IMG/VR virus record: IMGVR_UViG_2671180846_000026
Direction: 5' to 3' (one strand)
Length of the DNA: 4,217 nucleotides
Source: a virus
Lineage: Duplodnaviria; Heunggongvirae; Uroviricota; Caudoviricetes
Part shown: one piece after another, positions 734 through 4,217 of the stretch
Layout: each line of letters opens with the position of its first letter
Position numbering within the stretch: position 1 is the first letter of the stretch
Made by a program: the position numbers and the translations under genes
Notes under the pieces: generated by a model
What the model was told of the DNA's origin: nothing
Databases searched by the model: none
The model's input: the letters and a program-made list of their open reading frames with translations, nothing else

Positions 734-1399
734 TCAAACAAAACCAGCCGCTTTCCGGCGTTCATATTCCTGTTTCAGCAACTCAATTGGCGTTGGCCCC
801 GACGGGCGTTTGGGGGCCGCCAGTTGTCGCCGGACTGGCGGAACGCTCAGGCCGTTACTAACATGCTTTGCCCATTTCGTCAGTTGCCGTTCTGCAAGCC
901 GTTTTAATTCCCCTTCGGTCATCTGGCGCTCAATCCCCTTTGAACGCATCTCGAGGCAAATGTGATACAGCACAGGCTGAGACCACGGGTACTTATCACT
1001 TCCGTCGTATCGCCAGGACTCATTGCGCCAGCGGCGGTACTCCTCCATCACAGCATCCACCGTCAGACCGAATGGATTGGCTCCGCTTTTCGAAATCAGT
1101 GCCACAAACTCAGCCAGGTCCGGAGGCCATGTTTCACCCGCCCGGCAGCGGTCCATGCACTGGCGGCAGACCTGCCGGATTTGCTGCTCAGTCATCGCGC
1201 CAATCTGTGCAATCCAGAGCTTCGAAGGTGCGGCCCCGTTCTTCTGGATCCAGCGGTTCGAATAAACCACCCCCATGAGTTCCCACAGCTTCCAGGCCGT
1301 TTCCGTCGCTGATAAATCCGTTTTCACGTTCCCACTGCTCACGTGCTGCCCGAATTTCCTGAACTGCCCGTGATGCGGTGCCACCTGGTGCTGCTGCAT
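734..1399 (-). CDS. Replication protein P-like (lambda P family helicase loader)
   Basis: 221-codon ORF. ATG at 1399..1397 has an SD (AAGGGG, 6-nt spacer). C-terminal two-thirds resembles recalled lambda P (YPW motif, ELKR/ELRR, C-terminal KAAGFV vs KGASV region). Start is uncertain: in-frame ATGs at 1276 and 1195. The 1195 start forms ATGACTGA with the O-like stop, a coupling-type overlap; the 1399 start implies a 212-nt out-of-frame overlap with the O-like gene. Confidence 0.65.
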   Translation of the reverse strand: MQQHQVAPHHGQFRKFGQHVSSGNVKTDLSATETAWKLWELMGVVYSNRWIQKNGAAPSKLWIAQIGAMTEQQIRQVCRQCMDRCRAGETWPPDLAEFVALISKSGANPFGLTVDAVMEEYRRWRNESWRYDGSDKYPWSQPVLYHICLEMRSKGIERQMTEGELKRLAERQLTKWAKHVSNGLSVPPVRRQLAAPKRPSGPTPIELLKQEYERRKAAGFV

Positions 1400-2228
1400 G
1401 GTTTACCCCTTTGCTGACTGGTTTAACCTGCGCCCTGACGTGATTTACGTGACGGGCGAATTTCTGCTCCCACTGAATCTGCGTAAACACTTTCCCCTCC
1501 GCTGCCCAGTAGTCCCGGAAGGCGGCAAGTTCAGCAGGTGTAAATTCTGTCTCCGGCAAAGCCATCCCCCACAACGCAGCCCGTCGTCGAAAATCCCGTG
1601 ACGGATACCAGCTATCGCTCATCGGGAATTTTCCGATGGGTTCGCTCAGGCCATACAGGAATACAGGGGGGGCTGCCTGTAACGACAAAACTTCCTGCTC
1701 ACTGGTCGGAGCACTCTCGCGTGCGTTATGTGTGGGGTTTAGATCTTTGGGTTCCTTTGGGTTCCGTGATCCGTTTTTGGGTGTCTTTGATGGAAAATTT
1801 GGGTGTCTTTGGTTATTTTCCATGCAGCTAAGAGTTCTGTTTTTGGGTCTGTTTTGTGCTGAAACATAACCATTTTCGGTACTGTTTTTATTAACAGCAC
1901 CAATTTTACCCACCTTTAAAGACTCCCGTTTTTGGGTGTATTCAGGCTCGGCAACACTTTCTTCTACACCGATAAGTCGGTACACCACAATTTGCTTTGT
2001 TCTGCCTTTTCTCTCACCGGTATCAACAATTAACCCAATCTCCATCAGGTGTCGTAAGCTGTCCTGCACAGTCTTTTTGTTCAGTTCCGTTACTTCTGCC
2101 AGTGCAGATACAGACGGGTATGCACACAAATCGGCACCGCACATATCAGCAAGCCAGGTCAATACTGACTTACTGGATGAACTGCCGGTTTTCACCTTTT
2201 TAGCCCATCGTAGTGCATCGATACTCAT
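1188..2228 (-). CDS. Replication initiator, O-like (N-terminal HTH DNA-binding domain, low-complexity P/K/N-rich linker encoded by the iteron region, acidic C-terminal tail)
   Basis: ATG at 2228..2226 with SD (AGGGG, 5-nt spacer). The track's longer ORF begins at a TTG at 2303 with no support. N-terminus MSIDALRWAKKVK...LAEVTELNKKTVQDSLRHLMEIGLI is a typical phage replication-protein HTH. Sits between the cII-position gene and the P-like gene as in lambda O-P. Contains the iteron array. Stop TGA at 1190..1188. Confidence 0.7.
   Translation of the reverse strand: MSIDALRWAKKVKTGSSSSKSVLTWLADMCGADLCAYPSVSALAEVTELNKKTVQDSLRHLMEIGLIVDTGERKGRTKQIVVYRLIGVEESVAEPEYTQKRESLKVGKIGAVNKNSTENGYVSAQNRPKNRTLSCMENNQRHPNFPSKTPKNGSRNPKEPKDLNPTHNARESAPTSEQEVLSLQAAPPVFLYGLSEPIGKFPMSDSWYPSRDFRRRAALWGMALPETEFTPAELAAFRDYWAAEGKVFTQIQWEQKFARHVNHVRAQVKPVSKGVNHAAAPGGTASRAVQEIRAAREQWERENGFISDGNGLEAVGTHGGGLFEPLDPEERGRTFEALDCTDWRDD
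1745..1939. repeat. Iteron-like direct repeats plus AT-rich tract; putative phage origin of replication embedded in the O-like gene
   Basis: Core TTTGGGT at 1748, 1758, 1776, 1798, 1842 and 1931. Perfect tandem 10-mers CTTTGGGTTC at 1745..1754 and 1755..1764. Perfect 14-mers TTTGGGTGTCTTTG at 1776..1789 and 1798..1811 (22-bp period). AT-rich tract about 1860..1920. Same layout as the lambda ori inside gene O. Confidence 0.55.
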
Positions 2229-2672
2229 ACGAACCCCTGGCAGACATTTGTTTATCTGCAAAGTAATATTGGTATTGCTGACGATACGCGTGCTTGAAAG
2301 CAATAGCTTTTTCTATAAGCTCGTCAGTCTCACGTTCCACAACAACTGGATCCGCAAAAAGCAGCCCGGACTCCACCACATCGCCATATTCTTTGTTTAA
2401 CCCGGCGATCATGTACGTAATGCTTTTTCCGTCAGTAATTTCACAATACAATCTGAAATCGCTGATCCGGATAGCCTCCATAATTGCCGGAATCAGCGCC
2501 GTGAATTTGTCACGCTTATCTCTGGTGTCGATAGCTTTCCAGCGTTCGAATATCTTCACCCGGTTAACGCCCAGCGCCCGTTGATCAACCTCGCCATCAT
2601 TAAACGTGACGCGTTGAACATCGATGTTCGGGCGTTCTTTCAGAGCCCAGAATGCTTCCGTGATTAATATCG
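2200..2672 (-). CDS. cII-position regulatory protein (possibly CP76/YdaT-like CII analogue); 5' end lies in the N-run
   Basis: Open, well-codon-adapted frame from the N-run to stop TAA at 2202..2200 (157 codons visible). No ATG, GTG or TTG near its 5' end, so the start must lie in or before the masked stretch. Position between Cro-like and O-like genes matches lambda cII. Family assignment is by position and recollection. Confidence 0.45.
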
Positions 2673-2722
2673 NNNNNNNNNNNNNNNNNNNNNNNNNNNN
2701 NNNNNNNNNNNNNNNNNNNNNN
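2673..2722. other. Run of 50 N (assembly gap or masked sequence)
   Basis: Directly visible. Interrupts the minus-strand coding region between the Cro-like N-terminus and the cII-position ORF, so the track's 228-aa read-through ORF (2200..2886) is partly an artefact of translating N. Confidence 0.99.
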
Positions 2723-2912: not shown

Positions 2913-2941
2913 AAACTAGATCGTAGAGAAACCTAAGTCAA
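2913..2941 (-). promoter_or_regulatory. Putative sigma70 promoter for the Cro-like early operon (pR analogue)
   Basis: Minus-strand -35 TTGACT (plus 2936..2941), 17-nt spacer, -10 TAGTTT (plus 2913..2918). Predicted start near 2906 gives a ~20-nt leader carrying the SD. Confidence 0.4.
2921..2938. promoter_or_regulatory. Operator-like site 2 (18-mer; reverse complement ACTTAGGTTTCTCTACGA)
   Basis: 15/18 identical to site 3 when reverse-complemented. Lies in the spacer/-35 of the pR-like promoter and over the -35 of the pRM-like promoter. Confidence 0.5.
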
Positions 2942-2954
2942 GAAAAATTAGAAT
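2926..2954 (+). promoter_or_regulatory. Putative promoter for the repressor gene (pRM analogue), possibly giving a leaderless or near-leaderless mRNA
   Basis: -10-like TAGAAT at 2949..2954 ends 8 nt before the ATG at 2963. No SD before the ATG. Weak -35 (GAGAAA, 2926..2931) as in activator-dependent lambda pRM. Confidence 0.3.
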
Positions 2955-2962
2955 TACCTAAT

Positions 2963-3370
2963 ATGAAAAACGAAACCTTCGGTGCTCGCCTCTTATACAG
3001 GCGAAAAAAATTAAAACTGTCTCAGGCCGCATTAGGTAAGCTGGTCAAAGTGGCTCACGTAACAATTTCTCAATGGGAAAGAGATGAAACACAGCCAGCG
3101 GGGAAGAGATTATTCGCACTGAGCCAGGCGCTTCAGTGCTCGCCGACTTGGCTTCTTTTTGGAGATGAAGATAAGCAACCAGGCGAACCGATCCCAGATA
3201 ATCAGCCAGTCAATCTGACAGAAGATCAAAAAGAGTTGCTTCAACTGTTCGACGCACTGCCTGAGTCAGAGCAAAAGGCTCTGTTGTCAGAGATGCGTGC
3301 TCGAGTTGAGAATTTCAACAAACTTTTTGAAGAACTACTCAAAGCTCGCAAAAGAAGCGCAAATAAATAA
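2963..3370 (+). CDS. dicA: HTH-type prophage repressor, DicA-like (XRE-family HTH, no LexA-like S24 peptidase domain)
   Basis: 135-aa ORF, stop TAA at 3368..3370. HTH (LSQAALGKLVKVAHVTISQWERDE) and C-terminal segment (CSPTWLLFGDEDKQP...LPESEQ...EMRARVENFNKLFEELLKARKR) closely resemble recalled E. coli Qin-prophage DicA (also 135 aa), roughly 60% identical by eye. A homologue rather than K-12 dicA itself; symbol denotes family. Confidence 0.8.
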   Translation: MKNETFGARLLYRRKKLKLSQAALGKLVKVAHVTISQWERDETQPAGKRLFALSQALQCSPTWLLFGDEDKQPGEPIPDNQPVNLTEDQKELLQLFDALPESEQKALLSEMRARVENFNKLFEELLKARKRSANK

Positions 3371-3443: not shown

Positions 3444-3461
3444 GCTTAGGTTTTTCTACGC
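3444..3461. promoter_or_regulatory. Operator-like site 3 (GCTTAGGTTTTTCTACGC)
   Basis: 14/18 identical to site 1 and 15/18 to reverse-complemented site 2. Immediately upstream of the -35 of the downstream promoter. Confidence 0.5.
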
Positions 3462-3468
3462 AAAAAGC

Positions 3469-3498
3469 TTGACCATAACTCTTAGGCTATTCTAAATT
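3469..3498 (+). promoter_or_regulatory. Putative sigma70 promoter for the downstream plus-strand operon (pL / dicBp analogue)
   Basis: -35 TTGACC (3469..3474), 18-nt spacer, -10 TAAATT (3493..3498). Flanked and overlapped by operator-like sites 3 and 4. Sits about 80 nt upstream of the 3578 start. Confidence 0.45.
3480..3497. promoter_or_regulatory. Operator-like site 4 (TCTTAGGCTATTCTAAAT), degenerate copy
   Basis: 12/18 match to site 3 including the CTTAGG half-site. Overlaps the spacer and -10 of the pL-like promoter. Confidence 0.35.
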
Positions 3499-3577: not shown

Positions 3578-3934
3578 GTGGGCGAAGTCAAACATCAGAA
3601 TGGAAGGCGTCCAGGGATCAGCAAAGAAACAGCGATGGCGCTTTATATTGATATCAGCGCCATTGCCGGACAGGTAAGAATTATCAGAGCGGTAACTAAG
3701 CGGTATGCGCCTTTACTTCAGAAAGTCTCTGGTGAGTGCACCGAAGATATTGTCAACGATTTCGTCATCAAACTGCGAGGACTCATCTTCAGTTACAAGG
3801 TGACCACAATTTTTGCAGATGGCTCCCGCGAAACTGTCAGAGCCCTGCGGCTTAAAGGATGTGTCAAAGACTTAGCCACCACATTCTGGGCAAGAAAACT
3901 TGATTGTATTCATAACCAATTTCCTCTCGAGTAA
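3578..3934 (+). CDS. Hypothetical protein (118 aa from GTG; 99 aa if ATG at 3635), first gene of the putative repressor-controlled early-left operon
   Basis: Only long ORF in either strand over 3371..4005. GTG at 3578 preceded by AGAGGA with 7-nt spacer. Contains several rare Arg/Gly codons (AGA x4, AGG, GGA), typical of acquired genes. I do not recognise the protein. Confidence 0.5.
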   Translation: MGEVKHQNGRRPGISKETAMALYIDISAIAGQVRIIRAVTKRYAPLLQKVSGECTEDIVNDFVIKLRGLIFSYKVTTIFADGSRETVRALRLKGCVKDLATTFWARKLDCIHNQFPLE

Positions 3935-4005: not shown

Positions 4006-4217
4006 ATGCAGAAACGAGAACCCGTCATCATCGCGCCAGACTATACCGATGATGAACTTTATGAGTGGATGCACCAGAAAATTAAGGCAGCGCAGGACCT
4101 GAAATGGGCCAATGAAGCCAGGGCTAAGCAGGCTGAAAATCTGTCCGCTCTGGAGCAGGATATCACCAATCTGGAAAAAGCAGCGGCATTAAGCATTGCC
4201 AGAATGATTACATACCC
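4006..4217 (+). CDS. Hypothetical protein, partial (3' end beyond window); predicted helical/coiled-coil, N-terminus MQKREPVIIAPDYTDDELYEWMHQKIKAAQDLKWANEARAKQAENL
   Basis: ATG at 4006 preceded by strong SD AAGGAG (3995..4000, 5-nt spacer). Open for 70 codons to the window end with typical codon usage. Absent from the ORF track because no stop lies in the window. Confidence 0.6.
   Translation, partial: MQKREPVIIAPDYTDDELYEWMHQKIKAAQDLKWANEARAKQAENLSALEQDITNLEKAAALSIARMITY

Follow-up and report, generated by a model that had tools for sequence, protein, structure and literature searches.

Palindromic iterons within the initiator gene of PPompW-type prophages point to a lambda-style replication origin in Escherichia coli

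Introduction

A cluster of short repeats in the middle of a prophage replication gene raises the question of whether that piece of coding DNA also acts as an origin of replication or merely records a repetitive protein linker. The repeats are found in IMG/VR virus record IMGVR_UViG_2671180846_000026 (Caudoviricetes), a 4,217-nucleotide stretch of DNA referred to here as the window, which covers the early region of a lambdoid prophage with its control and replication genes, and they lie within the gene for its "O-like" replication initiator. An earlier note on this DNA had proposed a prophage origin with the architecture of lambda ori and an iteron sequence of its own. Origins embedded in the initiator gene are textbook knowledge.

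Comparison with related prophages suggests that window 1745-1944 most likely represents the origin-recognition part of a PPompW-type lambdoid prophage replication origin, with its iterons placed in the code for the linker of the initiator. This assignment is based on the clustering of the repeats, their use of three reading frames, their fixed codons, the identity of their third codon positions, their location, their dyad symmetry, their co-inheritance with one protein module, the alleles of other strains, the gene context and the lambda precedent.

The window is 99.7-100% identical to PPompW prophages and to Stx2a-phage/PPompW composites of E. coli O145:H28, and 301 bp spanning the repeats were present in 907 of 5,426 complete E. 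coli genomes (17%). Roughly one complete E. coli genome in six carries the replication module, which is found in O157:H7 EDL933 and in the O145:H28 prophages that serve as hosts for Stx2a phages. Knowledge of its iterons would provide a handle for building dv-type plasmids, and would help in predicting cross-activation or incompatibility amongst co-resident prophages with a common iteron core and in interpreting escape replication around induced prophages. Full-text searches by iteron strings and by topic returned no description of this origin; within the literature that could be searched, this version of a lambda-style origin has not been described previously.

Results and Discussion

The repeat array and its palindromic unit

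Six copies of TTTGGGT were found in the window, all on the plus strand (1746, 1756, 1776, 1798, 1842 and 1931) and within a span of 195 bp, against an expectation of 0.83 copies for the window as a whole. One of 200 shuffled versions of the window also had six copies, and six same-strand copies within 200 bp were never seen in 5,000 first-order Markov sequences, where the maximum was two, or three with a gene-trained model. The array of at least six TTTGGGT cores reported in the earlier note is thus real, as are the perfect tandem 10-mers, which were recovered by Tandem Repeats Finder (TRF), and the perfect 14-mers TTTGGGTGTCTTTG at 1776-1789 and 1798-1811, spaced by 22 bp. The array also lies, as had been stated, wholly inside the O-like open reading frame (ORF; 2228..1188), where the repeats encode initiator residues ~95-165, a part of the linker that is predicted to be disordered (pLDDT <55).

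What did not hold was the choice of the 7-mer as the repeat core. A position weight matrix (PWM) trained without the window, together with dyad analysis, indicated that the actual unit is an imperfect palindrome of ~24 bp with a consensus of roughly AACAGTCCC-AAAAAC-GGGACTGTT and an asymmetric A-rich centre, in which TTTGGGT covers the left arm plus centre only. Three of the TTTGGGT copies (1746, 1756 and 1798) are not full iterons, and a weak iteron at 1863-1886 (ACCGAAAATGG) has no TTTGGGT. Exactly four sites in the window were identified by the PWM, every one in the linker and in gene sense, and with their variants they occupy 1764-1942, between the regions coding for the winged helix and the DnaT-like domain. 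The features of the array are listed in Table 1 together with those of the surrounding genes.

Table 1. Coordinates and properties of the iterons, domains, genes and other features in the window (scores are PWM scores unless indicated otherwise; aa, amino acids; AF2, AlphaFold2)
Feature	Position	Strand	Properties
Iteron 1	1919..1942	minus	AATACACCC-AAAAAC-GGGAGTCTT; arms 7/9; T-Q-K-R frame; PWM 32.6
Decayed iteron copy	1894..1918	minus	AAAGGTGGGTAAAATTGGTGCTGTT; PWM <8
Iteron 2, weak	1863..1886	minus	AACAGTACC-GAAAAT-GGTTATGTT; arms 7/9; PWM 19.2
Iteron 3	1830..1853	minus	AACAGACCC-AAAAAC-AGAACTCTT; arms 5/9; PWM 29.6
AATT-centred variant	1792..1812	minus	CAAAGACACCCAAATTTTCCA
Iteron 4, last canonical	1764..1787	minus	AAGACACCC-AAAAAC-GGATCACGG; arms 3/9; T-P-K-N-G frame; PWM 27.8
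Tandem 10-mers	~1745-1765	minus	CTTTGGGTTC x2 (GGAACCCAAAG x2 in gene sense); TRF
50 bp of lowest duplex stability among the coding regions of the window	1859..1908		GC 0.30; nearest-neighbour dG -59.0 vs mean -69.3, sd 4.8
Module junction	1744..1748		megablast covers query 1-561 only; tblastn matches aa 161-346 only
Initiator ("O-like") gene, 346 aa	2228..1188	minus	intact ORF
Winged helix, aa 1-90	coding 2228-1959		AF2 pLDDT >90
Disordered linker, aa 91-200			AF2 pLDDT <55
DnaT-like single-stranded DNA (ssDNA)-binding domain, aa 201-267	coding 1628-1428		Pfam DnaT PF17948 9e-17; AF2 pLDDT >90 over aa 200-270
Lambda-P-like helicase loader gene	1195..734	minus	PF06992 (Phage_lambda_P) 1.3e-16; phrog_109 "P-like helicase loader" 1e-61
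DUF1627 gene		minus	after P-like gene
P22-Cro/DicC-like gene		minus	first in order; PF14549 at 2e-12
YdaT/CII-like gene		minus	between Cro-like gene and initiator gene
DicA-like repressor gene	2963..3370	plus

Several of these sites have counterparts elsewhere. The core and frame of iteron 1 are identical in Edwardsiella phage EPP-1 and nine other relatives, the position of the last iteron is kept in all close relatives, and the positional homologue of the AATT-centred variant in Edwardsiella, Serratia and Plesiomonas is AAAGACACCCAATTTTGGAGG. The decayed copy sits where EPP-1, Edwardsiella and Enterobacter hold a canonical iteron (gene nucleotide (nt) 319). Other alleles from E. coli come closer to the consensus: in O103:H2 strain 129 and O157 strain 180-PT54 the AATGG of iteron 2 is replaced by the canonical AACGG (PWM 24.9-25.5) and the ACAG of iteron 3 by the canonical ACGG, with better arm symmetry (PWM 31.0-35.3).

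The dyad symmetry is a property of the whole family, in which perfect 5-bp dyads flanking an A-rich spacer of 4-6 nt numbered 67, compared to 6.8 in shuffled linkers. Additionally, the two arms covary between lineages (GTCCC/GGGAC, GTACC/GGTAC, GTTCC/GGAAC, GTGCC/GGCAC, GTCGG/CCGAC, ATCCC/GGGAT and CACCC/GGGTG). The covarying half-sites fit a dimeric protein that would read both arms, and the palindromic form of the iterons likewise suggests binding by a dimer. Lambda O dimers bind the dyad-symmetric iterons of lambda ori. A description of the iterons as asymmetric, plasmid-like direct repeats was also considered, and was dropped on account of the covarying arms and of the comparison with the iterons of lambda.

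Selection on the repeats as DNA

The relatives used for comparison were 52 loci encoding the N-terminal domain (L001, L004-L054), collected by tblastn and a scan of representative genomes, with winged-helix domains 33-80% identical by tblastn. Repeated DNA follows directly after the winged-helix coding region in nearly all of them. The core CCCAAAAACGG occurs 4-7 times per gene in Enterobacterales (Edwardsiella, Serratia, Plesiomonas, Kluyvera, Klebsiella, Enterobacter, Scandinavium and Yersinia) and in several other Gamma- and Betaproteobacteria (Neptuniibacter, Oleiphilaceae, Sulfuricella and metagenome-assembled genomes), always in gene sense and with a peptide that depends on the frame (PKNG, QKR or PKT). 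More distant relatives hold other repeats at the equal gene position. In the window itself, gene-sense ACCCAAA is found in frames 0, 1 and 2, where it contributes to the peptides TQKR, TPKNG/RPKN and HPNF/NPK.

Codon usage was examined with repeats defined by their peptide rather than by their DNA. The linkers of 18 relatives contained 21 PKNG peptides, every one of them coded CCC-AAA-AAC-GGN, while outside the linker the same genes used CCC for 20% of Pro, AAA for 49% of Lys and AAC for 64% of Asn. In four colinear genes from Plesiomonas, Edwardsiella and Serratia, identity at third codon positions was 0.89 in the iterons, as opposed to 0.53 in the winged helix and 0.56 in the C-terminus. The sites are also restricted in location, as the PWM gave 121 hits in 16 kb of linker DNA versus 4 in 235 kb of flanks (both strands searched), all but one in gene sense. 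Altogether, the three frames, the fixed codons, the high third-position identity and the restriction of the motif to the linker code across 51 relatives indicate that the repeats are under selection as DNA rather than as peptide.

These observations bear directly on the possibility that the repeats are a mere by-product of recent slippage in a repetitive P/K/N-rich linker and have no function as DNA, which the earlier note had named as the outcome that would undo an origin. The region does encode a disordered linker of that composition, and the tandem 10-mer does slip. Yet one DNA motif is read in three frames to give different peptides, its codons are fixed, its third codon positions are much more alike than those of the folded domains, and it persists in relatives whose winged helix is only 34-56% identical (tblastn), so that conservation at the DNA level is clear and an origin of the repeats in linker slippage alone appears extremely improbable. 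One stretch of DNA would thus double as an array of binding sites and as a protein linker, a disordered linker being able to tolerate the peptide of any frame.

Co-inheritance of the iterons with the winged-helix module

The initiator gene can be divided at a junction next to the array (Table 1). Over window 1188-1748, covering aa 161-346 together with the P-like gene, identity to ydaU/ydaV of Escherichia phage Rac-SA53 is ~90%, whereas upstream of the junction in gene sense the winged helix and the iterons are unrelated to ydaU. The resemblance to Rac-SA53 extends to the C-terminal DnaT-like half of the initiator (87% identical), to a similar P-like gene downstream and to the same dicA/dicC/ydaT control layout. 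It does not extend to the N-terminal half of YdaU, which is unrelated and matches phrog_3992 and phrog_6451 ("primosomal protein"), and no CCCAAAAACGG iterons were found in 5.5 kb of Rac-SA53. The converse combination is seen in the relatives from Edwardsiella, which have the same winged helix and iterons but a Phg_2220_C domain at the C-terminus.

Across the relatives, iterons occur at loci where no YdaT, Cro, DicA or DUF1627 neighbour was detected, and at four loci (L015, L028, L033 and L038) without a detectable P-like gene. None of YdaT, Cro, DicA, DUF1627, P and the DnaT-like half is present at every iteron-bearing locus, and homologues of some of these neighbours and domains occur at loci that have no iterons. 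Only the winged-helix module accompanies the iterons in every case. By these sequence comparisons the initiator is a mosaic, in which the iterons travel with the N-terminal winged-helix module and not with the C-terminal domain or the neighbouring genes. Lambdoid O genes combine an N-terminal origin-specificity module with a C-terminal loader-partner module, and by analogy the mosaic seen here follows the same pattern.

The same distribution helps to weigh a regulatory role, in which the palindromes would be sites for another protein (CII-like YdaT, DicA/Cro or a host factor) or would form primosome-type or mRNA hairpins. Covarying arms would also be expected of hairpins, the RNA fold z-score of the region is -3.1, and the DnaT-like domain hints at PriA-type primosome biology. 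However, the stems would be weak, with just 5-9 bp each, and no Rfam match was obtained; no promoter- or terminator-like site was found in window 1500-2400; and dimers of lambda O recognise sites built in the same way. As the iterons are also found in relatives without detectable YdaT, Cro or DUF1627, or without the DnaT-like domain, and co-occur with the winged-helix module alone, we consider such a role quite improbable, and an array read by the initiator remains the preferred explanation of the palindromes.

The tandem 10-mers and the GAAYCTAYCA element

The perfect tandem 10-mers, described in the earlier note as part of the iteron array, turned out to be something else. Their position holds GGAATCTACCAAAGGAACCTAAAG in Kluyvera, Klebsiella and Enterobacter, and a codon-level comparison relates the window to that sequence by a 3-nt deletion and substitutions. 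They were rejected as iterons, as relatives hold GAATCTACCAAAGGAACCTAAAG there, and are instead a diverged homologue of a second conserved element, GAAYCTAYCA, from which most of the additional interest of the comparison derives. Almost all of the family has this element, relatives with entirely different iterons included, as 1-4 tandem copies with a period of ~12 bp directly after the last iteron (gene nt ~380-500), always in gene sense and read in several frames (ESTN, EPIN, NLP and NLS). The canonical repeat in its Kluyvera version is GAATCTACCA. With at most one mismatch, GAAYCTAYCA gave 76 hits in 11.7 kb of post-iteron segments, compared to 38 in 243 kb elsewhere.

The element was absent from the scanned 1.1 kb of lambda around ori and from ydaU of Rac-SA53, and by eye the 12-mer does not fit the consensus of IHF, of the DnaA box or of Fis. 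No description of it was found in the literature, where full-text matches to the string were all unrelated. Its position allows the speculation that it acts at the unwinding or helicase-loading step. We put forward tentatively, and with more doubt than confidence, that the 10-mers of the window are the diverged local form of an undescribed conserved origin element marking where unwinding or helicase loading takes place, the E. coli version of which may have been re-specified or disabled. GAAYCTAYCA is shared by almost all of the family of HTH_36-type prophage initiators, from Gamma- and Betaproteobacteria to Desulfovibrio, and would then need a common reader, which might be a host replication factor or a conserved part of the initiator surface that acts on DNA once it is unwound.

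The tandem 10-mer is a mutational hazard for the gene that contains it. In E. coli 2013C_3964 (L056) one 10-mer has been lost, with a resulting frameshift that splits the gene, and the RefSeq annotation of this locus is an HTH protein plus a DnaT-like pseudogene.

Two further features were observed around this element. The 10-mer/12-mer element lies between two GATC (Dam) sites (1742-1745 and 1768-1771), a pair that is kept in relatives from Enterobacterales (L007, L009 and L014) as GGGATCCGG ... AAAGATCTAAA and that may be connected with SeqA/Dam control of initiation. Several relatives also have a G+C-rich palindrome after the 12-mer (L001, L008-L012 and L014 at gene nt ~505-530, and also L045 and L046), in the form CCCCC-AA-GGGGG in Edwardsiella, Serratia, Plesiomonas and Yersinia and CCCCCCC-GCAAGC-GGGGGGG in Zoogloeaceae, which recalls the inverted repeat to the right of the AT-rich region of lambda. 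The window has no such palindrome, and the Rac-type C-terminal module starts there instead.

The AT-rich tract

The AT-rich stretch that the earlier note had placed after the repeats is real, with a GC content of 0.32 at 1860-1919, and overlaps the 50 bp that have the lowest duplex stability within the coding regions of the window (1859-1908). Its place is different from the one claimed, as in gene orientation it lies within the array and not after it: it overlaps the weak iteron 2 and the decayed copy, and the strong iteron at 1919-1942 lies beyond it. The tract corresponds to the positions of strong iterons in relatives (gene nt 319 and 352/370, iterons 2-3), and the relatives are not AT-rich at the position equivalent to 1859-1908. 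Because relatives carry iterons there, the tract was rejected, on positional homology, as the equivalent of the AT-rich region of lambda. It is plausible that 1859-1908 represents a candidate melting site in this lineage. GC content dips just past the last iteron in several relatives, for example to 12-20% in L016 and 18-25% in L033.

Comparison with lambda and other replication systems

In lambda, the origin is located within the central part of O and is made up of iterons and an AT-rich tract (PMC7466680). In its four annotated iterons, taken from NC_001416, the sequences ATCCCTCAAAACGAGGGA and ATCCCTCAAATTGGGGGA have CCC in one arm and GGG in the other, around a centre of AAAAC or AAATT, and the GTCCCAAAAACGGGAC of the present family has the same design; the AAATT centre of lambda iteron 3 is similar to the AATT-centred variant in the window. 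As with the array in the window, the origin of lambda and those of Stx phages with six iterons lie mid-gene in the code for the inter-domain linker of the initiator. Lambda also shares with the window several iterons in the same orientation, a gene for a P-type helicase loader immediately downstream, and the division of the initiator into N-terminal origin specificity and a C-terminal loader partner. In contrast to lambda, the window initiator has no Phage_rep_O match and its C-terminal half is DnaT-like and ssDNA-binding, the spacing of the iterons is irregular (17-66 bp), and no AT-rich tract follows the last iteron in the window. As the iteron arms differ from those of lambda, a distinct specificity is indicated. 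The proposal of a lambda ori architecture with its own specificity was strongly supported by the comparison of relatives as far as the iteron array in the linker code is concerned, and failed for the position of the AT-rich tract.

Plasmids with theta replication (RK2, F and pPS10 type) have in common with the window a winged-helix initiator and several iterons in the same orientation. Additionally, the short tandem repeats beside the last iteron in the relatives of the window recall the 13-mers of the plasmid DNA unwinding element (DUE). Plasmid Rep proteins bind the DUE 13-mers as ssDNA. Unlike these plasmids, the window has its putative origin inside the initiator ORF, palindromic iterons and a phage-encoded loader, and lacks a Rep_3/RepA domain.

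HTH_36 proteins are also known from Stx phages, in their "Eru" replication units (Eru5, 6, 8, 11 and 13), some of which include a YdaT-like gene (PMC8951638). These units share with the window the HTH_36 motif and a place next to cI in lambdoid E. coli phages. In a term search of the two Eru publications, neither iterons nor an origin of replication came up.

Proposed mechanism and functional state of the origin

In the mechanism that we propose, dimers of the initiator would bind the iterons via the N-terminal winged helix, as suggested by the comparative evidence, and the A-tract centres may help to bend and wrap the DNA into an O-some-like complex, by extension from lambda and from DnaT biochemistry. 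The adjacent, easily melted duplex would then open, either at 1859-1908 or at the element at 1745-1764, and the DnaT-like ssDNA-binding half, together with the overlapping P-like protein, would deliver host DnaB. We infer protein binding, the unwinding site and origin activity by analogy with characterised systems.

A number of observations weigh against this assignment. The iterons of the window are weaker than those of its relatives, with 7/9, 7/9, 5/9 and 3/9 complementary arm positions, two of the cores are one base off the consensus, and one copy is decayed. No canonical copy of GAAYCTAYCA was found in the E. coli lineage, and GC content is ~50% just past the last iteron, where the AT-rich region of lambda would be. 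Nor could a direct homology between the initiator and lambda O be established: there was no PF04492 (Phage_rep_O) match at E<=0.01, BLASTP returned nothing, and hhalign, run against the single lambda O sequence, gave 2.4% probability. Lastly, PPompW prophages have been described as defective, since mitomycin C leads to their excision and yet they are not packaged (PMC8112680).

Some of these points could be explained if the region were an origin by descent that has since decayed into a nonfunctional relic within a defective prophage lineage. The absence of packaging (PMC8112680), the weaker iterons with their decayed copy, the missing canonical GAAYCTAYCA and the frameshift alleles produced by slippage of the 10-mer would all agree with such a relic. 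On the other hand, the initiator and P ORFs are intact in the window; of the 907 complete E. coli genomes with the 301-bp segment, 906 match it at 95% identity or more; good conservation of the PPompW early regions has been reported (PMC8112680); and two circular records are built around the module. A decayed relic is for these reasons rather unlikely.

The two circular records, deposited as E. coli "plasmids" (NZ_CP148379.1, L058, 8,461 bp; NZ_CP148543.1, L060, 15,643 bp), consist of a contiguous prophage early region only, with dicA-like, cro-like and ydaT genes, the initiator gene with iterons, a P-like gene and downstream prophage genes. No other replication protein is amongst their listed genes, and the typing field states only "non-mobilizable". 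Their resemblance to natural plasmids of the lambda-dv type is suggestive, and they could be artefacts of long-read assembly.

Initiator protein

The initiator belongs to the PHROG family annotated "replication initiation protein" (phrog_1032, 9e-91). The HTH_36 match in its winged helix (3e-4) is under the Pfam family cut-off, and no Rep_3/RepA-family domain was matched in Pfam, where the only related signal was RP-C (0.0078, 16.5 bits against a cut-off of 24.4). The DnaT-like domain is close to solved DnaT domains, with a phmmer match to PDB 6aep at 1.7e-19 and a Foldseek match to 6aeq at a TM score of 0.91 and 58% identity. The PDB and Pfam DnaT matches are confined to aa 194-271, and the full-length DnaT architecture, with its N-terminal oligomerisation and PriB-interacting domain, was not encountered. 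Database entries for the initiator protein are often labelled "partial".

A transitive link to lambda O is provided by phrog_678 and phrog_345, which match the N-terminal halves of both proteins. A third family, phrog_391, matches the initiator via the N-terminal half and lambda O via the C-terminal half, which implies that phage initiators exist that join this origin-binding module to a P-binding domain of the lambda O type.

Gene neighbourhood

A dicA/cro/cII-like control region lies upstream of the initiator gene. On the other side, the ATG of the P-like gene overlaps the initiator stop codon (ATGACTGA), and its assignment as P-like agrees with the RefSeq annotation of identical alleles. 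A run of 50 N at window 2673-2722 hides where the Cro-like gene ends and where the YdaT-like gene starts, and for this reason the ORF list merges the two into a single ORF of 228 aa.

Operator-like clusters were observed at window 2922-2961 and 3445-3498, on either side of the DicA-like repressor gene. They pair inversely (CGTAGAGAAACCTAAG with CTTAGGTTTTTCTACG, 94%; AAATTAGAATTACCTAA with TTAGGCTATTCTAAATT, 82%) in a manner reminiscent of OR and OL, and all four copies of CCTAAG in the window fall inside them. A plus-strand ORF of 118 aa (window 3578-3934) matches phrog_21318, to which no function is assigned, and has no Pfam match, and downstream of the repressor gene a second plus-strand ORF (4006-4217) continues past the end of the window.

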